From Shigella phage Sf12: a stretch of 47,647 nucleotides of DNA. Made by a program: the position numbers and the translations under genes. Every line of letters begins with the position of its first letter. Position 1 is the stretch's first letter. Of this stretch, positions 13,084-41,036 are shown one piece after another. The stretch lies in the sequence record MF158039; one strand, written 5' to 3'. The notes below the pieces were generated by a model. It was not told the origin of the DNA and made no database searches. It saw nothing but the letters and a program-made list of their open reading frames with translations.

Positions 13084-14280
13084 ATGGCAATTTATGACGC
13101 AGGAACAGCATCGCTTGCGGCTGACGGAACTGTAACTGGTGTTGGTACTACCTGGAGGCAGCCGTTAACTCTAATTCGAGTTGGTGCGACGATGATTTTC
13201 AACACCACGCCAGCAAGCATTGTAACTATTGCTGAAATTATCAGCGATACAGAAATTAGAGTTTTTAACGATAAGGGCTTTACCGCGCCAGCAGGAACCC
13301 AGTACTCAATTCTTGCTCATGACGGAATTACTGTTCAGGGATTGGCTCAGGATGTTGCAGAGACACTTAGATATTACCAGTCTAATAACTATGTAACCGC
13401 AGATGAAAATGGAAACGTTGAAATTCAGAATGGAGGTACAGGTGCAAGTAGTGCACCAGATGCACGAGCTAACTTAGGTTTAGGTTCGGCAGCTACATTT
13501 GATACCGTTCCTGTAGCTAACGGCGGCACAGGTGCTAACAACGCATCTGACGCGCGCGATAACCTTGGGTTAGGTCCATTATCTACATCTAATGTGGCAC
13601 CAATAGAGAACGGCGGGACTGGAGTAACAACTCGAGAGGAGCTATGGCCTATCGTTCGACCTTTCGACGTGTACGGTAACGTTGGACGCCGAATGGGTTT
13701 ACCGGACGGTATCACACGAAACCACATCACTATGTGGAACTCGGCAGACACGCCGTCGGCAGGTTTCATGAACTATTTAGAAGGCGGATGGTTCAACGGT
13801 GCATGGCGTATCGGTGGGATACGTGGCGGTGGACAGGATCTGGCAGCATGCCAACTGACAGTTGACAGCGGTCAAGGTATGAATTATGACTATGTGTTCA
13901 ACAATAACGGTACAGCGAGCGCTGCAAACTGGGTCAGCACATCTGACCGACGCGTAAAAAAAGACATCGTTGAAATAGCAGACCCGCTAACTAAGATGCG
14001 CTCGATTCGAGGCGTATCATGGACTATGCGCTTCAAAAATAACCCCCTTAAAGGTTTCGGCTTTGTGGCACAGGAAGTGCAAAAGTATTTTCCTGATGCC
14101 GTTAGTGTGGTAAACAAAAACCCCATGACACTTGAAGACGATACAGTTGTTGAGGGTGTCATGAGCGTTGACACATCTGGAGTGTCCGCTGCACTACATC
14201 ACGAAGCCATACTGACACTGATGGATAAAATTGAAGTTCTTGAGTCACGAATATCTTCTCTTGAGGCTGGAGGGAAATAA
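13084..14280 (+). CDS. Side tail fiber with three NGGTGA..A(R)xNLGLG repeats and C-terminal intramolecular-chaperone (peptidase S74-like) domain
   Basis: Repeats at aa 116-180; C-terminal STSDRRVKKDI ... GFGFVAQEVQKYFPDAV. Confidence 0.7.
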   Translation: MAIYDAGTASLAADGTVTGVGTTWRQPLTLIRVGATMIFNTTPASIVTIAEIISDTEIRVFNDKGFTAPAGTQYSILAHDGITVQGLAQDVAETLRYYQSNNYVTADENGNVEIQNGGTGASSAPDARANLGLGSAATFDTVPVANGGTGANNASDARDNLGLGPLSTSNVAPIENGGTGVTTREELWPIVRPFDVYGNVGRRMGLPDGITRNHITMWNSADTPSAGFMNYLEGGWFNGAWRIGGIRGGGQDLAACQLTVDSGQGMNYDYVFNNNGTASAANWVSTSDRRVKKDIVEIADPLTKMRSIRGVSWTMRFKNNPLKGFGFVAQEVQKYFPDAVSVVNKNPMTLEDDTVVEGVMSVDTSGVSAALHHEAILTLMDKIEVLESRISSLEAGGK

Positions 14281-20761: not shown

Positions 20762-23700
20762 TTAGTAAACTCCAGTCAAACGGCCAATCTGAACACGAAG
20801 CCTTCCGTTAGCGTCAGCAACAGATATTGTCTCATTTGTTTGCTTCATTCTACCCTCTCCAGCCGTAGAGCCGTTATTTTCGAACGTTCCACCCTTGTCA
20901 AGTCTCCATCCGACAGAGCCAAATACGTAGTTGTTAGACTGAATTGCACCACCAATCTTCGCGTTAGTGATTGAACCGTCCTGAATAACCGCGCTTTGTA
21001 TGAATACCTGGTTATTCTCGACAACGAAAGGCAGCGACCACTGACCGGAACCAGAACTAATGCCGTTACTGATTGCAAACCTGTTAGCATCGAAAATGAA
21101 CTGACTACGAACATTTCCACCACTACCGGTTAACTCCATGCTCATGCCAGCACCGTACTCAACTCCATTGTACTTAAGGCCTAGCTTAACGCCGTACTGA
21201 ACACCAACGCCTTCAACTGTAGCGTAAGAGTCGAGCTTCTGATTCAAAGCCGCCTCGTTATCACCAAGCCTTGCGCTGAGAGCCGTATCAGCAGTAGCCC
21301 TCGCTTCCGTCTCGGTTGCTAGCGCTGTTTCGATAGTTGTAATCTGACCAACAATCTCATCATCAATTTGCGCCTTAAGCTGCGTAAGAGCCTCTACACG
21401 AGCCTCAGTTTCGTTGGCTATTAGATTAACAGCCTGACGATACTCAGCCTTCCTGGCTCCATTTTCACGCCTCATAACACGAACATCAGTATCGTTTGCC
21501 AATGCGTTCTCAATTATTGCCTCGGCCTGGTTCTGAATGTCAGCATTTGCATCTATCGCGTTCTGGAGTAGATACTTGTATCCATCTGAGTTTTCAATAT
21601 CAACCTTAATTTCTCCAATGATTGCACTCACGTCATCCGAAGCCATACCCCTGACAAAATCAGTCCATTGCGATACGTTACCAATCCTGTCGATCGTTCT
21701 TCCCCTATACCAGATCACCTTTCCTGCCGGGAGCGTCGTGTGCCAATACTCAAACTGAGGGTAAGGAACGAGAGTTAACAATGAGGCATTCTCAGGGGTG
21801 TATGTCCCATCGCCATTATCAGCAACTTGCTGCAATTCCACATAAGCAGTATCACCACTATTATTGCCAAAACCCCACTTAACACGGATGCCAAATACTT
21901 CATCATCTGAAGCCGTGATGACCTGCAATGGCTCAGGCTCACCAACCTTACCAGTCAAGCTAACTGTTGTAATTTCAGACCATGCCGATACTGATTTTTG
22001 GTCAGTTACAGCACGAACCCTGACGTCGTAAATGCCAGCGTAGATGCCTTCAATATCAACCTCAGTGTTAGCCGTCTCCGGTACATTAATCCAGTTTCCG
22101 TTATTCTTACGCCATTGCACGTTGTATGTTTTCGCATACTGCACCTTGTCGTAACCGATAACCATCGTCTCAACGCTCATGCCCTGAACTACTTTGCTGT
22201 AACTAGTAACCGTAATGTTCTTCGGTGGTAAAATCCTGTCAGGGTCAACTATGCTTGTTGGCCTGTCGTCGATGTTTACTCCGTAGTCAATCTCATCGTA
22301 CTTGTTAGGGTCATACTGAACAGCCGTGATGCTGTACTGGAATGAATCCTCTCCGTCCGTGTTGGCTTTTTGAATCCCGGTCACAACATATTGCTGTAAA
22401 GCAAGATTCTGCTTGTCGATTGCAAATACCGTATCTGGCTGCGGCGTGAAGCTGAATGCTGTATTCAGCTCAAGCGTCAACTTATCGGCAGATACTGAAG
22501 CGATAGTCCTGTACTCCGGGCTTCCATCTGGCTTGTTGATTAAGATTCTGTCGCCAGGGTCAGCATCAATAGCGAACGGAACAAAAACCTGCAAACCAGT
22601 AGCCTCCACGATTCGACCAGAAAGGTTTAACGTGTAATTGCTTGACCAAGCTTGGTCATTAACAGCAATGACATCACCAATCATAGGAATCATACCTTCG
22701 AGTCCGGTGGTGAATGTTATTGTTTCGCTACGCAAGTTCGTTTTAAGGAGCCAACGACCACGACGGTTAGCCTCGCTACGCCTTACGCATCCAATTGCAG
22801 TCAGGTCTACAGGGTTATACCCAAACCTGCGAGTTGCCTCAAGGTCAAACACTGGCTCTACGTCTTGCTGGTAGTTGTTCTCTACATCATCAAACTGAAC
22901 GTTGGCAGTCGTGTACAAACTCTTATCACTAGCAAACGTGCGGTTGAATAAACCATCGACTACGTTATCATTTGTGAATACGTAACTTGGTTGGCGCGGC
23001 CTGTCAACTACAATCCCAATTTGCTCACCATCATAGAAGGTTAATCCACGGAAAATGGAACAGATGTCACGAATAATCTGATACGCTTCCACTTTCTGCT
23101 GAATGACAACGTTACAAGTATATCGCGGCTCCATTCCACCCTTACCATCCGGGACCATCTGGTCGCAGAATTGCGCAGCTTCATACAGACCCCACTTATC
23201 AATCTCAACTCCAAGCTCTCGCTGGTCAAGCCCATACCTCTGACTGACTACCAGGTCATATAAAACCCACGCCGGGTTATCTGACCATGCCATCTTGAAA
23301 GTTCCATCCCAAGTTCCGCTATAAGTCCGCGTTGCTGGGGTGTAGTTTGTTGGGACTCTAATTATCTTCCACCTTTTCTTGATTGCGATAGGCGGCAACC
23401 CGTTAGGAAAAAGGTCTGAACTGAACTCTACATAAACAAGCGCTGTAAGTGGATAACGGAATTTGGCGTCAATTACTTCCTGATAGGTCGTAATCTGCAT
23501 TCCGTTTACCAGAGTGCTGCTTGTTGAGTCTGGCGTTAACTTCCTAATACGAACAAGAGCGCTGCTAAACTCGGCTGGTAAGTTAACCCTGATACTGCGG
23601 TCGTAACCTGTTGTAGTTTTACCGTTAGCCACGCCTCTGGTATATTCAGTGTACGCTGAGCCATTAACTGATAAATCGATTGCATATTCACATGTTGTGC

Positions 23701-24157
23701 CATTTAAATCTCCATTCTCTTCTTGCTTAACGAGTCTAGGCCAGAACAGCTTGACGCGAATTGCTGATAGCTGACTGTTGTTTACTGCTATGATGTAAGG
23801 TGTATCGTTGTTAATCTCGCGGCTAACCTGAATCTCTGATGCTGCACCATCTAGTCCGGCGATATAGTCTTGAGACTGAGTGCCAGGGCGAAATTCTGCG
23901 GTCACTCCTTCGTAGTTGAATGAGTTATCCTGGTTTTGCACGGGAACGTCAGCAAGGTAAAGGTCTTTAAGTGAAAAGCTTGAGTCAACCTCGCCATCAG
24001 CAACGGCCAGTAGCACCTTAATCTTGTTGAGTGAAATCAGGTTATCTTCTTGCTCTACAGGTGTGTGCTGCTTTTGGCTACCACCCTTGCTTCCATAAAT
24101 CTTTGGCAAATCGGCCATATCATATAACCTCGTTGTTTGTTTAACCATTTGTGCCAT
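20762..24157 (-). CDS. Central tail fiber / host-specificity protein (lambda gpJ-like); probable true start at Met 24118
   Basis: YSGTWDGTF ... DKWGLYEAAQFCDQMVPDGKGGMEPRYTCN resembles lambda J conserved core as recalled. Confidence 0.9.
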   Translation of the reverse strand: MAQMVKQTTRLYDMADLPKIYGSKGGSQKQHTPVEQEDNLISLNKIKVLLAVADGEVDSSFSLKDLYLADVPVQNQDNSFNYEGVTAEFRPGTQSQDYIAGLDGAASEIQVSREINNDTPYIIAVNNSQLSAIRVKLFWPRLVKQEENGDLNGTTCEYAIDLSVNGSAYTEYTRGVANGKTTTGYDRSIRVNLPAEFSSALVRIRKLTPDSTSSTLVNGMQITTYQEVIDAKFRYPLTALVYVEFSSDLFPNGLPPIAIKKRWKIIRVPTNYTPATRTYSGTWDGTFKMAWSDNPAWVLYDLVVSQRYGLDQRELGVEIDKWGLYEAAQFCDQMVPDGKGGMEPRYTCNVVIQQKVEAYQIIRDICSIFRGLTFYDGEQIGIVVDRPRQPSYVFTNDNVVDGLFNRTFASDKSLYTTANVQFDDVENNYQQDVEPVFDLEATRRFGYNPVDLTAIGCVRRSEANRRGRWLLKTNLRSETITFTTGLEGMIPMIGDVIAVNDQAWSSNYTLNLSGRIVEATGLQVFVPFAIDADPGDRILINKPDGSPEYRTIASVSADKLTLELNTAFSFTPQPDTVFAIDKQNLALQQYVVTGIQKANTDGEDSFQYSITAVQYDPNKYDEIDYGVNIDDRPTSIVDPDRILPPKNITVTSYSKVVQGMSVETMVIGYDKVQYAKTYNVQWRKNNGNWINVPETANTEVDIEGIYAGIYDVRVRAVTDQKSVSAWSEITTVSLTGKVGEPEPLQVITASDDEVFGIRVKWGFGNNSGDTAYVELQQVADNGDGTYTPENASLLTLVPYPQFEYWHTTLPAGKVIWYRGRTIDRIGNVSQWTDFVRGMASDDVSAIIGEIKVDIENSDGYKYLLQNAIDANADIQNQAEAIIENALANDTDVRVMRRENGARKAEYRQAVNLIANETEARVEALTQLKAQIDDEIVGQITTIETALATETEARATADTALSARLGDNEAALNQKLDSYATVEGVGVQYGVKLGLKYNGVEYGAGMSMELTGSGGNVRSQFIFDANRFAISNGISSGSGQWSLPFVVENNQVFIQSAVIQDGSITNAKIGGAIQSNNYVFGSVGWRLDKGGTFENNGSTAGEGRMKQTNETISVADANGRLRVQIGRLTGVY

Positions 24158-31010: not shown

Positions 31011-31661
31011 TTATGCTGGCAGGAAGCTGTAGCGTCCACGTACCGTAATTGCTACGGATACAGTTTCGATTTCGTTAACGCTTACGTTTGGAGTTTCGTT
31101 AAAAGCAACGGTACCAGTCCACAGGCGAACTTCGCTAGCCTTTGGTACATATGCACGAATCGCAGTAACCTTGCCACTCTCATCCAGTTCGCGAAGGATT
31201 GGGTAAATGGGGTTGTTGTATTCATGAGCAAAAGTATAGGTCGCGTTTACTGCAGACTTGTAAGTAGGAATCTGCTGTTCACGGTCATCGCTCAGGCACT
31301 GATAGGTAACGAACTGCTGCTCACCACCGTCAGTAGAAACATCCTGAATACAAGGCATTTCAAACCAGGTAAGAACCTTGGCGATAGTTGCCGTGCCGCC
31401 AGCTGGGAACTTCAGGGTTGAAGTGGTATCAATACCTTCAACGGTGATAGTTGTAGCGGTGGTAGACACCACGCGAAGCTGCTTGTCTGCCAGGTTAGAC
31501 CAGGTTGAAGATTCAACAACAACGAAATCGCCGGTAGCGAAGGTTGAAGCGTCAGCAACAGTCATGACCGGCTGAACTGCGTTGGTAATTGCTGTAACAT
31601 CTACTGCGTCAGAGCGTGAGCCCTCAATAAAAATTTGACTGCCATTTGCGAGGTGAGCCAT
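31011..31661 (-). CDS. Major tail protein
   Basis: Position upstream of G/T and tape measure; strong terminator downstream. Confidence 0.55.
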   Translation of the reverse strand: MAHLANGSQIFIEGSRSDAVDVTAITNAVQPVMTVADASTFATGDFVVVESSTWSNLADKQLRVVSTTATTITVEGIDTTSTLKFPAGGTATIAKVLTWFEMPCIQDVSTDGGEQQFVTYQCLSDDREQQIPTYKSAVNATYTFAHEYNNPIYPILRELDESGKVTAIRAYVPKASEVRLWTGTVAFNETPNVSVNEIETVSVAITVRGRYSFLPA

Positions 31662-33568: not shown

Positions 33569-33633
33569 ATTATATAGCCATATAAACAAAAATACCACCC
33601 CGAAGGGTGGTAGGTGATCAGCAATAATTGCTA
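33569..33633 (-). promoter_or_regulatory. Composite junction: palindrome (33619..33633) right after the capsid-gene stop, terminator hairpin (33596..33611), then -10 TATAAT (complement of 33569..33574)
   Basis: gcgTAA-TAGCAATTATTGCTG; ccacccttcggggtgg plus T-run. Confidence 0.55.
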
Positions 33634-34620
33634 TTACGCGAAGGTGATACCCTTCATGACTGCCATCGTTAAAGGCCTATACACGATCAAACCAGTTGCC
33701 TTGGAGGTTACTGGTACGCGGAAATGTAAATCCTTCGGCTGAGCCGGTAGTGCGTTAGTAGCTTCCGGAATCTCGATGGCCATGTTGTTCGGGTCTTTCT
33801 CATAAGCGATAGCTGCAGAGGTGCCAGTGCCATTGTAATCATTCAGGTACTGAACGAACTCAACAGTTACGCCGCTGTTGTTCTGGCGGAAGAATTCACC
33901 ATAGCTAACAGAGGTGCCAGGAACCAGGTTCTGCATGATACGACGAGCGGTAGTAGGCAGAAGAAGGTGCGTAGCGCGGTGCTGACCATTAGTTGAAGTC
34001 TCGATAATATCCAGAAGGCTTGTAATGTCGCTTACCGCTGTGGTAGGTTGAGCCCATGAGCCACCGCTAACAACGTTGTTGATATTTGGGTAGTCGAACA
34101 CGCTAGGGATGCCGTGAACGGTAGAGCCGGACCATACCAGTTTATCAAGCAGCTTGTCGTGAGCTTCGAAAGCCAAGGACTGCTTGCGAGCAGACAGTGA
34201 CTGACCAGTAGCCTGACCAACTTTAATTTCATCAATAGAAATCAGGAACGCGTTACCGAAACGGAAAACTTTACCCTGACGTTCAGTTGCTAAAGCGTCA
34301 ACCAGTGGCAGGTCATCAGTGTAGTCAGCTACGATCTGAGCAATACCAACGCCATCAAATACCGGATACTCAAAGTACTTAGCATAGCCAGGGATTTCAT
34401 TGCTTACAGGGAACAGGTTTACTACGGAGTTCTGATCGTACTCAGTCTCGTAAGCTTTATTCAGGCTTGCAGTGAGTTGCTTCACAGTCCAGATACCAGC
34501 CGCGTCGGCTTTATCAACACCCATCGCGCGCAGGTGGTTAGTAATCTTTTCTTGCTCGAAAGCGTCAAGTTTGATAGTCATATTAAGATGCATCCTTTTG
34601 TTTATGAGTTTACGTGTCAA
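33634..34620 (-). CDS. Major capsid protein (putative)
   Basis: 328 aa, followed by strong terminator; position in head module; no motif-level proof. Confidence 0.5.
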   Translation of the reverse strand: MTRKLINKRMHLNMTIKLDAFEQEKITNHLRAMGVDKADAAGIWTVKQLTASLNKAYETEYDQNSVVNLFPVSNEIPGYAKYFEYPVFDGVGIAQIVADYTDDLPLVDALATERQGKVFRFGNAFLISIDEIKVGQATGQSLSARKQSLAFEAHDKLLDKLVWSGSTVHGIPSVFDYPNINNVVSGGSWAQPTTAVSDITSLLDIIETSTNGQHRATHLLLPTTARRIMQNLVPGTSVSYGEFFRQNNSGVTVEFVQYLNDYNGTGTSAAIAYEKDPNNMAIEIPEATNALPAQPKDLHFRVPVTSKATGLIVYRPLTMAVMKGITFA

Positions 34621-34680: not shown

Positions 34681-36156
34681 CTATGCGAGAGGTTCGCTTA
34701 AGTTTTCCACCTTATAAGCGTAAACGCCAGCCAAGGCATCGGATGAGTTCCTTATGCCAACTATTGTAAGCTTGAAGCATTTAGAGTCAGCTGTAGCTCC
34801 TGGTGATGTGGTTACGTAGTGCTCAGATGTGACTCCAAAAACTCCTGGCTTGAACACGCTATTCCAAAGAGCAGTCCCAGGAGGCATGCTTGTTACTATC
34901 GCTGTGTAGTTTTTCAACTTATCAGCTGCAACTGTAGTGAGTGAGTCAATCTGGTATGCAGTGTGCCTTATTGAAGCGATGTTTGATGTACCGGTATTAC
35001 TAACACCAACCCACAGCCCCTTAGCGGCAACTGTCGCATTCTTCTCTCCGGTAAGAGCGAACCTTATTGTTGTCTCTCCAGGTATATCTATAAAGTCAGT
35101 ATCCGTCTGATTGATCAACCCTGACCTTACGCCTGAAGCTACGTTATAAGAGGCTGGACCAGCCACCCCCTGTAAGCCCTGAGGTCCCGTAGGGCCCTGC
35201 AATCCACGCTCACCCTGCGGGCCTGCCGGGCCTTGTGGTCCAACTGCACCAGCTACACCTTGTAAGCCTTGCGGGCCAGCTGGGCCTTGCTCACCTTGCA
35301 GGCCCCTCTCGCCTTGTGGGCCTTGAATACCTGCCGGACCTGTCGGGCCAGTTGGGCCTGCTGGACCAGCGGAACCCTGTGGGCCTGGAGCACCCTGTGC
35401 GGCCAGTAACTCCCAGGAATCGCTAACATCTGGATTTTCTCCGGTCACGGCGGCGGTAGCAAACCAGCTTGAGTTATTGAATGTAACAACGTCATCTTTA
35501 ACGTAAGCTGTCGCTGCGTCGTACATCCCGCGGAATGTTAAGCCTGCCGGACCAACTGGGCCCGCATCACCTTTATCACCTTTAGGGCCAGCAGGACCTG
35601 CTGCGCCAGTTGCACCGATAGGGCCTTGCGGACCAGCCTCGCCAGTTTCACCTTGAGGACCTTGCGGGCCTACGGGGCCAGCTGGACCAGTTTCGCCTTT
35701 AGCACCTGCCGCGCCTGCCGGGCCGGTAGCACCTGTTGGGCCTTGAGGACCCTGTGGACCAATAGCTCCTGCCGGGCCCGCTGGACCCTGTGGACCAACC
35801 GGACCTTGTGGGCCTGCTTCACCTGAGCCTCCTTCTTCATCACTTACAAAATCACCTTTCGCCAGCGCTGAAAGATAAGCACCATCTTCGAAGTGGGCAT
35901 TGCCAAACCTGCGCCAGCCCTGGGCTAGATATCTGTTAACCCTGTTAACTAATCCCTGAATTGTGGTATCGGATGTCACCATGAAGTCTTCAACGTTGTT
36001 TGCTGTTCCCTTCGCCATCTTCATGCCAAAGAGGGTGCCGCTCAGCATCTGCACGTCGCCATATGGCTGGAATCCTGATGAAATCATCATTTTTACGTTT
36101 CTGGCTAAGATTTCAGGTGAATTCCCTACTGCCATAGCAATTTCTGTGTAAGCCAT
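34681..36156 (-). CDS. Collagen-like triple-helix repeat protein (fiber-like structural protein)
   Basis: Two long Gly-X-Y tracts, e.g. [34 protein letters not shown]. Confidence 0.8.
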
Positions 36157-36210
36157 CTCTATCTCCTGATTGGTTAATAATCATTGACAGTCTAACAGAA
36201 AACCAGCAAT

Positions 36211-36232
36211 AAAAAACCTCCCAAAGGAGGTT
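36211..36232 (-). terminator. Rho-independent terminator
   Basis: aacctcctttgggaggtt then tttttt on minus strand. Confidence 0.6.
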
Positions 36233-36237
36233 TGATA

Positions 36238-37530
36238 TTAAACGCGAGAAACTGAAAGGATTTCCACTTGGGCGCCAGTTTGTAAGTATAGCTGGCCAGC
36301 AACGTCATTCTCATCAATAGCATTTACTACGCCAGAGAAGATTCTGACACCAAAACCTTTAGTCAGCCTTGCCACTACGTTAAATCCACGAGGCTTAACT
36401 GGAACCATTAGTGATTTCTGACCTGTAGCCGCCAGAAAAACCTCGCGAGCCATAGCCATACCCCTGAACTCATGACCCAGAGCGCCAGGGTGAACCCTAT
36501 CAGTTCCGGTGTATATTTCAGAGTTTGCTGCCGTTACATAGTTGCTAATGTTGATTACTGGTATCCCGTTATCAGCACAGAAGCCATCAACCAACTCAAC
36601 AACCCTCTGAGTTGTGGCATTCAATCCAATTGGTGTTGCGCAGCTAATCTGGATGATTGGTACATCACTGTAAGTCTTCCTGGTCTCCTCCAGGCACTCC
36701 GACATAGACCTAAGCAGCCACTCAGCCTTGCCAGGGTCATTTATTGAAACTGAGTCATTATAACCAAGCGCCCACGAGATAACGTCAGGTTTTCTATTTA
36801 ACGCTGCGAGCCTTGTCTTTACCCTGTTAATCGGGAACCTGCCCTCCTCTTTTGAAGTCCAGGCCGATCCACCAATCCCTTCGCAGATACCATCGAATCC
36901 AAGCGCTCGACTAAAAGTATAGAAGTCGTTTACTGCAGGGGATGAGCCATAAGACTGAGTCCTAAATCCCGCACCAGTACCAGCTGTGTAGCTATCACCC
37001 ATCTGGTAAATGAATGGCCTTTTAATAGTAATATCCCTGCTAATCGTGTCTAACGGACCGAATGCGAAAGAGCCAAATGCAGTGTTAACGCCATAAATCT
37101 CAATATGCCTTAACTTTCCGCTAACGACTCCATCATTGGCCTTCACTTGAATCCAGCTAACACCCTCAGTGGTTGGTGTCGTGATAGCATCTAGGGTTAC
37201 CAATTTACCGTCAACGAATATTGAGTAAGATGAAAGAGAGCCAATGGTCTTAATTTCAAAAAGCCTTGAATCAGTCATAAACTCAAGTTTCATCTGAAGG
37301 CCATTCGAAGGCTTCTGACCAGTGTAAGACCCGCCTGAAACGTTATCAAATCCGTAGGTTGTCCACATGAGATTGGTCTCATTAAGTCTATTGATAACTT
37401 GAGGGGTGGTAATTGATGTTGCGGCCCTGATTTCCTTGATTGCGGAAAACTCAGTCGATAGCTGAACTGGCTGCATAGTAGCCAAGCCGTTTTCAATATT
37501 TCTTTTTACCAAATCAATAAAGCTTGCCAT
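36238..37530 (-). CDS. SGNH/GDSL-family esterase with about 170-aa N-terminal non-catalytic domain
   Basis: Block I GDSYTAG, block III GYND, block V DRVH. Confidence 0.7.
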   Translation of the reverse strand: MASFIDLVKRNIENGLATMQPVQLSTEFSAIKEIRAATSITTPQVINRLNETNLMWTTYGFDNVSGGSYTGQKPSNGLQMKLEFMTDSRLFEIKTIGSLSSYSIFVDGKLVTLDAITTPTTEGVSWIQVKANDGVVSGKLRHIEIYGVNTAFGSFAFGPLDTISRDITIKRPFIYQMGDSYTAGTGAGFRTQSYGSSPAVNDFYTFSRALGFDGICEGIGGSAWTSKEEGRFPINRVKTRLAALNRKPDVISWALGYNDSVSINDPGKAEWLLRSMSECLEETRKTYSDVPIIQISCATPIGLNATTQRVVELVDGFCADNGIPVINISNYVTAANSEIYTGTDRVHPGALGHEFRGMAMAREVFLAATGQKSLMVPVKPRGFNVVARLTKGFGVRIFSGVVNAIDENDVAGQLYLQTGAQVEILSVSRV

Positions 37531-37580: not shown

Positions 37581-37603
37581 AAAAAAACCTCCCGAAGGAG
37601 GTT
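37581..37603 (-). terminator. Rho-independent terminator
   Basis: aacctccttcgggaggtt then ttttttt on minus strand. Confidence 0.6.
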
Positions 37604-37612
37604 TGATCTGAA

Positions 37613-38137
37613 TTATTCCATTAACTCATAAGTAACAATGGCTCGTCCTGATGTTTTTTTGTTCACTTCAGCAGCTACACCTGCCACGACGATAATCCTG
37701 TGTGCATATGCTTCTGGATCTATAGTCCAGTTGTAATATCCATTATATGGACCACTAAAAACGTATACCGCATCATCATCAAAGTCATTAGCAAGCTTTG
37801 GCTTAGACAGCGGTGTTAGACCCATAGATTCACACATCTCATAACCAATCATCTCATGATCTACAGTTGGTTGCTTTCCCATACCAAGATCAATAACAAT
37901 CAATTTAATGCTTGAAAATTTAACCCCAGAACTAACAGTCTCAGAGTAAGGTAATGATGTGGCACTTGATTTTTTATACGTCTCCTTTGAGGTTGCGCTT
38001 AAGTTGAATCCCTTGTATGAAGCGACCTCTAGGTATGGGAATGATCCGATAAATGAAACCTCTTTCTCGCTGAAATTATCTGCAATTGCAGCAGATAGTT
38101 CATCTAAAGTAATCAAGTCTAAGTTTAGCTTCTTCAT
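37613..38137 (-). CDS. Hypothetical structural-module protein (ORF 37613..38200, start refined to Met 38137)
   Basis: ORF track; upstream extension would cover a terminator hairpin. Confidence 0.4.
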   Translation of the reverse strand: MKKLNLDLITLDELSAAIADNFSEKEVSFIGSFPYLEVASYKGFNLSATSKETYKKSSATSLPYSETVSSGVKFSSIKLIVIDLGMGKQPTVDHEMIGYEMCESMGLTPLSKPKLANDFDDDAVYVFSGPYNGYYNWTIDPEAYAHRIIVVAGVAAEVNKKTSGRAIVTYELME

Positions 38138-38174
38138 ATAAACCCCTATTAAAAAGGCCCCGAAGGGCCATTTA

Positions 38175-38648
38175 TTATTTCTGAATAACCTGAACTTCAA
38201 CGAGCGCTGGGTCAGTTAATGCATCAGCTCCAGCTGCCTGGAAGCCACCTGCGAATGTCCAGTTAGTAGTGATTGCACCACCGCTTGTTGCGGAGCCATC
38301 AGTACCAATGGTAACCGCGCTGCCAAATGCCGGAGCGGCAGAAAGACCGGTAACCATCCAGATGCGACCGTGAGTCATTACGTTAGCGACCTGGAAGTTA
38401 TCAATATTACCAACAACGCCACCGTAAGAGCCGCGCGGGCTTTCGTAGTGTGACTTCACCAGAACGCCATATACGTTATCAGCAACAGCGGAAACCAGAA
38501 CTTTGTGACCATCAGCATCAACAGAACCGACACCAACAGCATAACCGACACCCTGAACTACTCCGGTAGACATTATACATGCACCATCAATATTGTACAG
38601 AGAGGTATCTGCAACCATACCAGCAGTAGCTTGACGACGAATTGCCAT
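38175..38648 (-). CDS. Gly/Ala/Val-rich structural protein (possible decoration or minor head protein)
   Basis: Composition and position after scaffold-like gene. Confidence 0.4.
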   Translation of the reverse strand: MAIRRQATAGMVADTSLYNIDGACIMSTGVVQGVGYAVGVGSVDADGHKVLVSAVADNVYGVLVKSHYESPRGSYGGVVGNIDNFQVANVMTHGRIWMVTGLSAAPAFGSAVTIGTDGSATSGGAITTNWTFAGGFQAAGADALTDPALVEVQVIQK

Positions 38649-38659
38649 ATTAAGACTCC

Positions 38660-39769
38660 TTATTTTTTCAATTTAGCGAGGCGAGCGCGCGGGTTAAGAG
38701 TCTTAACTTCCGGTGCTGCATCAGATTTTTCCGCGCCAGCAACTGCTACACGGGCTTCAGCCATTTTATCAGAAGATTTGGCGATATCAAAGGCCGCATC
38801 GATGTACGCATCAGATTTCTCAGCAACTTCAATACCAGATACTTCTTTAACGTAAGCAACTTTAATTGCTTTAGCGTCCAGGCCATCACATTTAACGCCA
38901 GCTTCTGCAGCAACGGCGACCAGAGCAGCCAGTTCATCAGCATCAGCTTTAGCTTTCGCTACAGCAGCTTCGATTTCAGCAGGAATGCCATCAACTTTAG
39001 CTTTCAGTGCGTCACGCTCAGCTTCAAGGGTGTCAGCTTTGGCCTTGGCCTGTTCTGCATCAGCTTTAACGGCCTCGATATGCTTAGCAACTTCCGGGGC
39101 GATTTCGAACTCCTGCTCGCCATCCAGTTTAATCTTAATCATCAATTTATCCTCTTTATTTGATTGAACGGTATCAGTATACGGGTTTTCCTGTTCCGCG
39201 TCCAGATTCAGTTTAGCCACTTGCGCACGGCCTTTATATACCAGAGCAATGTGGTTCACAACGATGTTTGTTTGCAGAGCATCAAAGCGTACCCAATCAG
39301 CAGGAATCTCATCCTGACTTGAGTATTCTCCATCAAGCTTATACTCACCAGTTTCATTGCTGCCCCAGCCAGGAGACTCAATATCAACAGTGTTGTAGCC
39401 AACCGAAAGCTCACCAGCAACGCCAGACCTAGCCTTCTCGATTGCTTGCTTGTCGTAAACGGTAAGAGGAACGACAACTGTAGAATCCTGGCGCATCGCC
39501 GTACCGGATACTGCGCCAACTACGACATCCTTGGCGTTATCTGAGTTAACTACAACGTGACCTAAGGTAAGCGGCTTGCCCTGATAACTTTGCAGAGAGT
39601 CAGCTTTAAAGACCTCTGATGCTGGTCGGAACTCTCGGCGCTCCGAACCATCTGGCAGATGGTAAGTTTGCACGCCTACACGCGCAACCACTGGAGTGTC
39701 TACGAGAAACCCGTTTTCATCGAAATGGGCCTTTACTTTGGCGCTATCATAACGCATCTTACTCTTCAT
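38660..39769 (-). CDS. Head morphogenesis protein: N-terminal globular domain plus Ala/Lys/Glu-rich coiled-coil scaffold-like C-terminus
   Basis: C-terminal low-complexity AKADAEQAKAKADTLEAERDALKAK; position after portal. Confidence 0.5.
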   Translation of the reverse strand: MKSKMRYDSAKVKAHFDENGFLVDTPVVARVGVQTYHLPDGSERREFRPASEVFKADSLQSYQGKPLTLGHVVVNSDNAKDVVVGAVSGTAMRQDSTVVVPLTVYDKQAIEKARSGVAGELSVGYNTVDIESPGWGSNETGEYKLDGEYSSQDEIPADWVRFDALQTNIVVNHIALVYKGRAQVAKLNLDAEQENPYTDTVQSNKEDKLMIKIKLDGEQEFEIAPEVAKHIEAVKADAEQAKAKADTLEAERDALKAKVDGIPAEIEAAVAKAKADADELAALVAVAAEAGVKCDGLDAKAIKVAYVKEVSGIEVAEKSDAYIDAAFDIAKSSDKMAEARVAVAGAEKSDAAPEVKTLNPRARLAKLKK

Positions 39770-41036
39770 TAATCACCACCTCCTCTACTAATTCTTCCTG
39801 AGCGGGTTGCTCTGGCAAGTTAACATCGCCATCCTGAAGCTTAACTTCCGTCGCAATGGTACGTAGTGTATCACGAGCTTCTTCGGTATTCATCACGCCA
39901 GCAGCAATCAATGCGGCGACTGAGTTAACGTTCTTCTCAAGAATCTCAGACTTATCTTTATCGCTAACCTGAGATAGGGGGTTAAATTCCACTGACCACT
40001 CTTGCTTAGTTACGATGAACGGTAACAGAAACTCAAGAAGAGGCAGCAATTCAGCCTTTCGCTTGCGGTCAACGTACCCGTAAAACGTCTCTAAAGCAGT
40101 ATTCTGGCTTGCTGATACGCCGCCAACGTTCTTGCCTTTAAGGATAATCTCGTGAATACCGCTCAGAGCAACGATTCGGTCAAACTTCTGACTCAAAAAC
40201 GTATCAATACCGCCAATATCCGAGTTAAGTACGTTATATTCCTCGCTCTCTGCGTCAATGCCGATTGCCTGGCCAACTCCACTGTTATTATCAACCTGTG
40301 CCAGGCGCAATCGAGCCGCGCCAAATCCATCTGAATCATCGCACAGGTCAGCTAAACCCTTGGCTTTCCAAACCGCCTGCTGTTTACGACGCAGTAACTG
40401 AGTAGCCAGTCGCTCACAGTTCTGATAGTCGTCAATAGCGTCGATTAAGTCACCAGTTAGTACGCTTGCGCCCCAGCCATCGTTGTTGCGACGTAAATTG
40501 TTAGGCACTCGCTCGCCATCAATGATATGGCAGCGTGTATAATGCACATCGTAGAACGTTGCCGCACCATTTGGCGTAATGCGGTAAGTTAATGGCTTAC
40601 CAAATCTAGCGTTACGTGGATTCTCCTCGCGAGTCTGGACCTTAACTTGCTGCCGGTCGTATACGCGAACAGTTTCGAGCTCCGCGCCTTCACGAATCGG
40701 GCTGGTTAGTGCTCTGCCATCCTTAACGATTGCCACTACAGCGGCGCCACCGTATAACCTCGCCCACGCCAGAGCGTCGATTACACTATCTGAAAGGTCT
40801 AAATCATCCCAGCGCGACCAGAAAGCGCCCTCATCATCAATGCCTTCAATGTTGAAGCCTGCGCCAAGCGCTACCTCTGGCACGATATCAATGATTCGGC
40901 GAACCAACGCGCTGCTGACGTAAAGCTGCTCAAGCTGCGCTGGCGCTGTTAAACCAAGGCTGCCAAACTTTCCGTAAATCTCGCTACCATCACTCCCGTT
41001 AAGAAAGATGTTTGCGTAGCTGTCTGCTTTTACCAT
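39759..41036 (-). CDS. Portal protein (putative)
   Basis: 425 aa directly downstream of the large terminase; position-based. Confidence 0.5.
   Translation of the reverse strand: MVKADSYANIFLNGSDGSEIYGKFGSLGLTAPAQLEQLYVSSALVRRIIDIVPEVALGAGFNIEGIDDEGAFWSRWDDLDLSDSVIDALAWARLYGGAAVVAIVKDGRALTSPIREGAELETVRVYDRQQVKVQTREENPRNARFGKPLTYRITPNGAATFYDVHYTRCHIIDGERVPNNLRRNNDGWGASVLTGDLIDAIDDYQNCERLATQLLRRKQQAVWKAKGLADLCDDSDGFGAARLRLAQVDNNSGVGQAIGIDAESEEYNVLNSDIGGIDTFLSQKFDRIVALSGIHEIILKGKNVGGVSASQNTALETFYGYVDRKRKAELLPLLEFLLPFIVTKQEWSVEFNPLSQVSDKDKSEILEKNVNSVAALIAAGVMNTEEARDTLRTIATEVKLQDGDVNLPEQPAQEELVEEVVINEE

Follow-up and report, generated by a model that had tools for sequence, protein, structure and literature searches.

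Proteins that project from the capsid have been described for several tailed phages, and they provide points of comparison for a gene encoding a collagen-like protein that we have analysed in Shigella phage Sf12 (sequence record MF158039; the whole stretch of 47,647 bp is referred to as the window), a complete phage genome of the T1-like subfamily Rogunavirinae within the Drexlerviridae. In phage T1, a member of the same virus family whose major capsid protein (MCP) and cement protein are homologous to those of the window, the same slot (in the order ST49 cement, terminator, ST48 and ST47 MCP) encodes gp48. By cryo-electron microscopy (cryo-EM), this protein was located at the surface of the capsid, forming 60 heterotrimers with the cement protein, where a flexible, outward-facing immunoglobulin (Ig)-like domain (BIG2/Ig) was proposed to aid adsorption (PMC11945409). 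T1 gp48 is anchored through a β-tulip paralogue of the cement protein and itself contributes one subunit to each heterotrimer, with 60 copies in all. Bacillus phage SPP1 carries gp12, a collagen-like trimer binding to expanded capsids and encoded directly upstream of the MCP (PMC6316719). This surface decoration is dispensable and associates after capsid expansion. Other non-essential capsid-anchored projections, the gp8.5 head fibres of phi29 and Hoc of T4, are thought to promote reversible attachment to cells (PMC7602432), with gp8.5 being a helix-turn-helix supercoil and Hoc consisting of Ig domains, neither of them containing collagen repeats. Finally, collagen helices are found in trimeric side tail fibres of the type of EPclA-D, encoded by EHEC prophages, and lambda Stf, as illustrated by EPclB, in which two collagen domains split by a small globular repeat confer a shape of three beads on two stalks (PMC3368898).

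We propose with moderate confidence that the window gene at positions 34681-36156 encodes a homotrimeric collagen-like head fibre serving as an accessory adhesin on the capsid, which would be functionally analogous to SPP1 gp12, T1 gp48, T4 Hoc and the phi29 head fibres. Its attachment to the head is suggested by conserved synteny, the precedent of T1, the co-segregation of its N-terminal domain with capsid proteins, missing domains of tail fibres and a precedent for collagen in such a role. The open reading frame (ORF) named in the initial annotation is found at exactly these coordinates in the ORF list, on the minus strand and running from ATG to TAG, and it is organized as follows:

34681..36156, minus strand: fibre gene of 491 residues, from ATG to the stop codon TAG at 34681-34683
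36163-36167, minus strand: Shine-Dalgarno sequence AGGAG, 6 nucleotides 5' of the fibre ATG, as read from the sequence
35833..36156, minus strand: N-terminal domain, residues 1-108, two tandem β-α-β-β units (DUF1737-like), the putative virion (capsid) anchor
35536..35832, minus strand: collagen tract 1, residues 109-207, 33 uninterrupted Gly-X-Y triplets
35395..35535, minus strand: knob, residues 208-254 (47 residues), CBM5/12-like, between the collagen tracts
35152..35394, minus strand: collagen tract 2, residues 255-335, 27 uninterrupted Gly-X-Y triplets
34684..35151, minus strand: C-terminal domain, residues 336-491 (156 residues), an all-β sandwich, the putative trimerization nucleus and ligand-binding head

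The two uninterrupted Gly-X-Y tracts described in the initial annotation are thus present with 33 and 27 triplets, whereas their total had been overestimated at about 75, a direct count giving 60. Such a run of 33 and 27 consecutive glycines at each third position cannot have originated by chance, and the protein matches the Pfam Collagen family PF01391 with an E-value of 8.8e-27 (93 bits versus a cutoff of 27.2). Proline occupies the X position in 33 of the 60 triplets overall and in 19 of the 33 in tract 1, a preference shared with the EPcl proteins, while the Y positions are mainly occupied by Gln, Ala and Thr. The local GC content climbs to 0.58 at 35-36 kb, in the same place as the collagen tracts, as expected from the codons for Gly and Pro. 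A collagen helix rises by 0.286 nm per residue, and from this value the tracts would extend over about 28 nm (33 triplets) and 23 nm (27 triplets). With its three globular parts, the whole fibre would measure roughly 55-60 nm, a length comparable to the head diameter of 53 nm of the related phage Rogue1. Its trimeric state is suggested by the chemistry of collagen and by analogy to the trimeric proteins EPclA and SPP1 gp12.

The globular character that had been assigned to both ends is borne out by AlphaFold2 (AF2) models, with a mean predicted local distance difference test score (pLDDT) of 87 for residues 1-108 and of 68 for residues 336-491. The N-terminal model, obtained from an alignment of nine sequences with a predicted template-modelling score of 0.79, displays two tandem β-α-β-β units, each bearing a G(W/F)xx(Y/F)(G/D) motif. 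The duplication is visible only in this model and in the GW/GF motif, and a BLAST comparison of the N-terminal halves detected no similarity between them. Against DUF1737 (PF08410), the N-terminal domain scores 20.4 bits, below the cutoff of 24, one relative has a match to PF08410, and searches of the BFVD structure database return half-domain matches to DUF1737 proteins with weak E-values. In the same database, the models of the Rogue1 and JK06 proteins superimpose with a TM-score of 0.97. The whole tandem domain is also matched by A0A2Z5HAH8 (262 residues; TM-score 0.71, 20% identity) of Pseudomonas phage phCDa, which stands outside the enterobacterial T1-like group.

The 47-residue knob between the tracts is a third non-collagen element that was overlooked in the initial annotation. 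A sub-threshold resemblance to carbohydrate-binding modules of the CBM5/12 type (PF02839) recurs in all of six divergent members, PF02839 being the best match in five and the second-best in the remaining one, and the annotation of Shigella phage Sd1 records IPR003610 for the homologous protein. For the C-terminal domain no specific ligand-binding fold was identified, and a full-length search of the sequences in the PDB returned matches to collagen and BclA repeats only.

These features define how the protein relates to the described systems. With SPP1 gp12 it shares the Gly-X-Y motif and the location of the gene just upstream of the MCP gene (SPP1 genes 11-12-13). Compared to the 491 residues and 60 triplets of the window protein, SPP1 gp12 is, however, a protein of only 64 residues and 8 triplets. 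It lacks a globular anchor, a knob and a distal domain and resides on a capsid without cement protein. We regard SPP1 gp12 as an analogue and not as a homologue, since similarity in a BLASTP comparison of the two proteins is confined to the Gly-X-Y repeats. The relationship to T1 gp48 is one of location. The anchor of the window protein is an α/β domain in the AF2 model, unlike the β-tulip of T1 gp48, and the fibre protein has no match to either PF22758 or PF23982. Due to its collagen tracts, the window fibre would have to be a homotrimer, in contrast to the heterotrimer formed by T1 gp48.

To describe the distribution of the family, we have searched protein and nucleotide databases. An exact copy of the fibre protein is present in the searched protein library, and Sd1 gp45 (HOR98_gp44), from a phage whose genome is about 93% identical to the window on the nucleotide level across the structural region, is 98% identical over aligned pieces comprising 81% of the window protein. 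A phmmer search with the N-terminal 108 residues against 1.84 billion representatives identified only about ten true relatives, all of which, where of sufficient length, run on into collagen repeats. Multi-stretch matches to RTX, FG-GAP and Kelch proteins in the same search proved to be spurious after a Pfam scan. Word-indexed searches returned one match for the N-terminal domain, none for the C-terminal domain and four for the N-terminal alignment, and a search of viral contigs with the single N-terminal sequence recovered the window itself, as IMGVR_UViG_2974508497_000001, and besides it Sd1 and phiKP26 only. In tblastn searches of 50,697 phage records, the N-terminal domain was found only in T1-like coliphages, in 20-29 records depending on the query.

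Members of this family share a common layout, consisting of an N-terminal domain of about 100-108 residues, a first collagen tract, a knob of about 47 residues, a second collagen tract and a β-rich C-terminal domain of 132-156 residues. True homologues in the same slot include Rogue1 gp21, Sd1 gp45, JK_26 of JK06 and bas01_0010 of Bas01 ('collagen repeat protein'), and the names given to the family (tail fiber, DNA polymerase, hypothetical) conflict. The N-terminal identity to the window is 97-99% in Sd1, Rogue1 and JK06 (98% in Rogue1) and about 30-40% in the types found in Bas01, e4/1c and Phagiculus. The collagen part varies in length from 10 triplets in JK06, which is devoid of the knob, to 29 in contig L005, 60 in the window and Sd1, 62 in Rogue1, 66 in Bas01 and 75-76 in e4/1c and Phagiculus. 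The C-terminal domains can be sorted into several types that hardly align with each other and show a mosaic distribution, a pattern from which the N-terminal domain departs. One type is shared by Rogue1 and JK06 and another by e4/1c and Bas01, with contig L004 being 62% identical; the type of the window is the one of Sd1 and distantly related to contig L005, with about 35% identity to the Rogue1/JK06 type in short local alignments. The combination of a conserved proximal with an exchangeable distal domain is classic for recognition fibres that are anchored to the virion. In phiEB49, gp53 (229 residues; L016, 2992-3681) begins with this anchor as well, but its shaft is not collagen and ends in a helix at the C-terminus. 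The N-terminal domain is thus a module accepting different fibre shafts.

In AHS24 (L021, 4532-5417) and in the group of Opt-719, Phleasolo and Sadiya (L010, 3501-5012), annotations divide the fibre gene into two ORFs with the break inside the collagen repeats, which could be due to a genuine frameshift, to slippage or to an error made in sequencing the repeat DNA. The split gene may explain why the fibre is not among the seven structural proteins of the AHS24 type that were identified by mass spectrometry (MS).

The presence of the protein in virions is documented for a close homologue. Virions of Rogue1 purified on caesium chloride gradients were separated by SDS-PAGE, and three bands were identified by matrix-assisted laser desorption/ionization MS (Kropinski et al., PMC3496638). 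A band of 52.7 kDa contained the product of gene 21 (48.5 kDa, 481 residues) with a coverage of 59.5%, while the remaining two corresponded to the MCP and the major tail protein (PMC3496638). Peptides were recovered from the N-terminal domain, including YLAQGWR(R) (residues 76-83), and from the C-terminal domain (PMC3496638, supplement). Gene 21 is the homologue of the window gene by position and sequence, and the peptide YLAQGWR(R) is identical in the window protein. The initial annotation had named absence from particles as the observation that would speak against a structural role; for this close homologue the opposite was found. With its 98% N-terminal identity to Rogue1 gp21, the window protein is likely a virion component as well, an assignment that we infer from sequence. 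The family was already noticed in 2012 as a collagen-like virion protein and, given also the match to the deposited Sd1 gp45, we do not describe a new system. No literature was found that would join Drexlerviridae or Rogunavirinae with collagen or with cryo-EM studies of decoration, and the paper on the BASEL collection contains no discussion of this gene in Bas01.

The same data bear on the question whether the gene is non-structural, either as a fragment of DNA polymerase I or as a spurious ORF arising from GC-rich repeat DNA. The former is implied by the label 'DNA polymerase (I)' attached to homologues in JK06, phiJLA23, phiKP26, C119, AHS24 (gp08) and phrog_22681. There is no polymerase domain in searches of Pfam or NCBIfam, the authors of the Rogue1 study call the annotation in JK06 incorrect (PMC3496638), and the detection of the Rogue1 homologue in virions by MS contradicts both versions, as does, for a spurious ORF, its conservation and the presence of a Shine-Dalgarno sequence. 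We consider this reading refuted and its residual probability negligible. The incorrect label, which concerns the N-terminal domain of the family, has spread from JK06 (L007, 3001-3837) to AHS24 (L021, 4965-5417), phrog_22681 and several records in RefSeq and GenBank.

The location of the gene provides an indication of where on the virion its product resides. The initial annotation had named a hydrolase of the SGNH family and the MCP as neighbours, both of which were recovered, and the following features define the surrounding region and the conventional tail genes:

39759-41036, minus strand: portal, first in the order of the head module
38660-39769, minus strand: protease/scaffold, in the head module after the portal
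38175-38648, minus strand: cement (decoration) protein, PF22758 (E=2e-21), the upstream bound of the accessory slot
38156-38169: hairpin after the cement gene
37613-38137, minus strand: orphan ORF of about 174 residues, between the cement and SGNH genes
37585-37604, minus strand: terminator-like hairpin AAACCTCCTTCGGGAGGTTT, near-identical to AAACCTCCTTTGGGAGGTTT, with which it flanks the SGNH gene
36238-37530, minus strand: SGNH/GDSL hydrolase of 430 residues, PF13472 (E=1e-13), phrog_9703 'head decoration'
36214-36233, minus strand: terminator-like hairpin AAACCTCCTTTGGGAGGTTT with a T-run behind it, separating the SGNH and fibre genes
33634-34620, minus strand: MCP, PF09950 (E=3.5e-41), the downstream bound of the slot
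33593-33612: hairpin after the MCP gene
31011-31661, minus strand: tail tube, among the genes following the MCP
20762-24157: gpJ central fibre, a conventional tail gene separate from the collagen-like gene
13084-14280, plus strand: lateral tail fibre of 398 residues, phrog_1980 and many tail-fibre PHROGs, adjoining the primase gene

On the minus strand, the head module proceeds from the portal to the protease/scaffold, cement protein, orphan ORF, SGNH hydrolase, fibre and MCP, beyond which connector and tail genes, including the tail tube and tape measure, are found. The cement protein is homologous to T1 gp49 (PDB 9KZJ/9KMG, E=2e-27) and shares no domain with the fibre protein. We have compared this arrangement in the window, Sd1, Rogue1, JK06, phiEB49, AHS24, e4/1c, Phagiculus, Opt-719, Bas01 (AugustePiccard) and the contigs L004, L005 and L006. 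In all genomes or contigs with available flanks (13/13), the fibre gene is contained in the head-morphogenesis module and, where both flanks are known, it is always located between the genes of the cement protein (PF22758) and the MCP (PF09950). This position is kept in two subfamilies and even where the N-terminal domains are only about 30% identical. Moreover, the type of the N-terminal domain co-segregates with the types of the MCP and the cement protein, unlike the adjacent protease gene. This is evident in the comparison of e4/1c with the window, where the protease is 95% identical, and the cement protein, N-terminal domain and MCP are 54%, 36% and 67% identical, respectively. Such behaviour is compatible with co-adaptation but also with mere linkage of the genes. 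Spearman correlations calculated for these pairs are not read as probabilities, since the pairs depend on each other through phylogeny.

A different placement, in which the protein would be a side fibre attached to the tail or neck with its N-terminal domain docking on the connector, the tail tube or the tail tip and its gene residing in the head module by coincidence, appears unlikely to us but has a number of observations in its favour. The protein matches phrog_5073 'tail fiber protein' (E=2.7e-158) and many collagen-containing tail-fibre PHROGs, and RefSeq uses the same name in Sd1, Rogue1, e4/1c and Phagiculus; matches to PHROGs beyond the family are, however, driven by the collagen repeats. 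Its beaded layout resembles the side-tail-fibre proteins of the EPclB type (Col-Pf2-Col), whereas the elements that characterize EPcl and Stf proteins are absent. Specifically, PfN (PF08400), Pf2 (PF03406) and PfC (PF06820), which define this family (PMC3368898), were not detected in the fibre protein by hmmscan at E<=0.01, PCoil is lacking as well, and the genes of EPcl and Stf proteins reside in tail modules. The presence in virions by itself fits head and tail alike. There is no relationship between its N-terminal anchor and the one of the lateral tail fibre that the phage also encodes (13084-14280), and the two proteins share no domain. Finally, the strict location between the cement and MCP genes at about 30% identity, in a slot where T1 encodes a capsid protein, and the tracking of MCP and cement types by the N-terminal type argue against a docking site on the tail. 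The lateral tail fibre itself, beside the primase gene, occupies the usual position in Drexlerviridae, as ST26 in T1, and with a conserved N-terminus of about 100 residues and a variable C-terminus it follows the same logic of an anchor with a variable tip as the collagen fibre.

Several points weigh against the assignment as head fibre with adhesive function. No member of the family has been localized on the particle by experiment, and the N-terminal fold resembles no known capsid-binding domain. The synteny and the tracking of the MCP type could be due to nothing more than genetic linkage. Both PHROG and RefSeq label the family as 'tail fiber protein', and the shaft of phiEB49 gp53, behind the same anchor, contains the motif 'WGDVTGKPSTF', whose GKPSTF part is of the type found in tail-fibre repeats. 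With respect to function, the scores of the knob against PF02839 (11.6-21.6 bits, E 2e-4 to 0.29) are all below the cutoff of 26.2, and the AF2 model of the C-terminal domain is of moderate confidence. A visible band on a gel is no proof of a high copy number, as gels of the AHS24 type show bands of gpJ and the portal. Last, the description of Rogue1 by negative-stain EM makes no mention of fibres on the head. A collagen triple helix is about 1.5 nm wide and easily missed with this technique. In sum, the 'head fiber or decoration' of the initial annotation is the reading favoured by indirect evidence, namely the slot and its equivalence to that of T1 gp48, the co-segregation, the homologue in virions and the separate genes for gpJ and the lateral tail fibre.

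The slot between the cement and MCP genes appears to collect independent accessory cassettes, which in the window comprise the orphan ORF, the esterase (SGNH hydrolase) and the fibre gene. Each of these accessory genes looks like a separate cassette with its own hairpin behind it, and the repeated hairpins could serve as recombination points for the gain and loss of genes. The orphan ORF is listed with 195 residues from a TTG at 38200, while its likely start is the ATG that opens 'MKKLNLDL'. Searches of Pfam, PHROG and NCBIfam gave no match, as did tblastn against the 50,697 phage records, and Sd1 lacks the ORF, which would make it an orphan cassette of the same slot.

The proximity of the esterase had led to the suggestion that the fibre might be its partner stalk, carrying or positioning the enzyme, with both genes forming an obligate module. 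They are indeed neighbours in the window and Sd1, in the Opt-719 group, in Bas01 and in contig L004, and annotators refer to the SGNH family as 'head decoration' or 'Hoc', a label that could not be verified. We find this suggestion unsupported and very improbable since each gene occurs without the other, the fibre without SGNH in Rogue1, JK06, AHS24, e4/1c, Phagiculus, phiEB49 and contig L005, and SGNH without the fibre in IME542. In addition, both genes are separated by the hairpin at 36214-36233, their products share no domain, and gp21 is found in virions of Rogue1, a phage devoid of the SGNH gene. The hydrolase itself contains an N-terminal region of about 170 residues with no assigned domain and is 51-99% identical to proteins of other Drexlerviridae. 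At 31-37% identity over about 300 residues, it resembles proteins of other phages, mostly of the T4-like genus Karamvirus, where they are named 'Hoc (c-part SGNH hydrolase)'. In the Karamvirus Pet-CM3-4, the homologue is located near the topoisomerase and dexA genes, outside the neighbourhood of head genes, and it contains no Hoc or Ig domain according to Pfam. In light of this context, we treated the 'Hoc/head decoration' label as mere annotation and did not use it as evidence.

Based on the described features, the following mechanism can be envisaged for a fibre on the head. Three chains would probably nucleate at the C-terminal β-domain, a site of nucleation that is usual for collagens (PMC11923368). 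The helix would then zip towards the N-terminus, with the knob re-registering the chains between both tracts. The conserved N-terminal domains would anchor the fibre on the outer face of the mature T=7 shell, docking either at a local three-fold position on or beside the cement trimers or at the centre of hexamers. In this way, the knob and the C-terminal domain, the latter being exchangeable, would be held far off the shell, where they may bind surface glycans, either of the host lipopolysaccharide or capsule or of the gut environment, in a weak, reversible and multivalent manner. The resulting larger capture radius would allow particles to gather on cells ahead of the step in which the tail proteins, gpJ and the lateral tail fibre, commit the phage to infection. 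In this view, the protein is an accessory and probably non-essential decoration. The sequence anatomy, the presence of the Rogue1 homologue in virions, the synteny and the modular shuffling have been shown; trimerization, docking to the capsid, the binding of glycans in an adhesin function and dispensability are all inferred.

Alternatively, the protein could be bound to the capsid with a mechanical or physico-chemical role, such as stabilization, spacing or the prevention of aggregation, and no specific ligand. The gene is located beside that of the cement protein, decoration proteins often stabilize capsids and the loss of Hoc affects the aggregation of T4 (PMC7602432), and the C-terminal domain lacks an identified specific ligand-binding fold. 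We nevertheless judge such a role to be improbable. The phage already contains a β-tulip cement protein, and the rapid exchange of C-terminal domains together with a collagen length of 10-76 triplets is a pattern of modules for the recognition of a host or environment and not one of a structural brace. The conservation of the CBM5/12-like knob points in the same direction, and for SPP1 gp12 and phi29 gp8.5 it is host adhesion and not stability that has been proposed (PMC7602432).

Taken as a whole, the data raise the prospect that capsids of a subset of T1-like coliphages (Rogunavirinae and some Braunvirinae including the K-12 model phage Bas01) are covered with collagen fibres of up to about 65 nm on a previously undescribed tandem DUF1737-like anchor, encoded in a slot that is a hot spot of gene swapping, a combined claim that we advance tentatively and at somewhat less than even confidence. 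If true, the slot would supply swapped glycan-interacting modules for display on the capsid, including collagen fibres whose heads can be exchanged, the SGNH esterase, the Ig domains of T1 and orphan ORFs, and the phage head would, besides the tail, be a modular organ for the binding of glycans of the host or of gut mucus. A head fibre would define a new type of capsid anchor with a plug-in distal domain, bear on adherence to host and mucus beyond tail receptors and on the engineering of capsid display, and correct a long-propagated misannotation as 'tail fiber' or 'DNA polymerase I'. Should it be located on the tail, the protein would merely be one more accessory fibre. T1-like phages are abundant coliphages of gut and sewage and, with the BASEL collection, have become accessible as a genetic model, and as Bas01 carries the gene, the question is directly testable in E. 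coli K-12.

A minor observation concerns the start of the MCP downstream of the fibre gene. The ORF as called begins with a TTG at 34620, while an ATG at 34581 is preceded by AAGGA. The MCP of phage ZL19 (PDB 9N01) aligns to the window protein from query residue 14 with an E-value of 1.5e-155, and both this protein and the Rogue1 sequence determined by MS start with 'MTIKLDAF', corresponding to the ATG at 34581. On the basis of these sequences, the MCP of the window is probably a protein of 315 residues starting at this codon.

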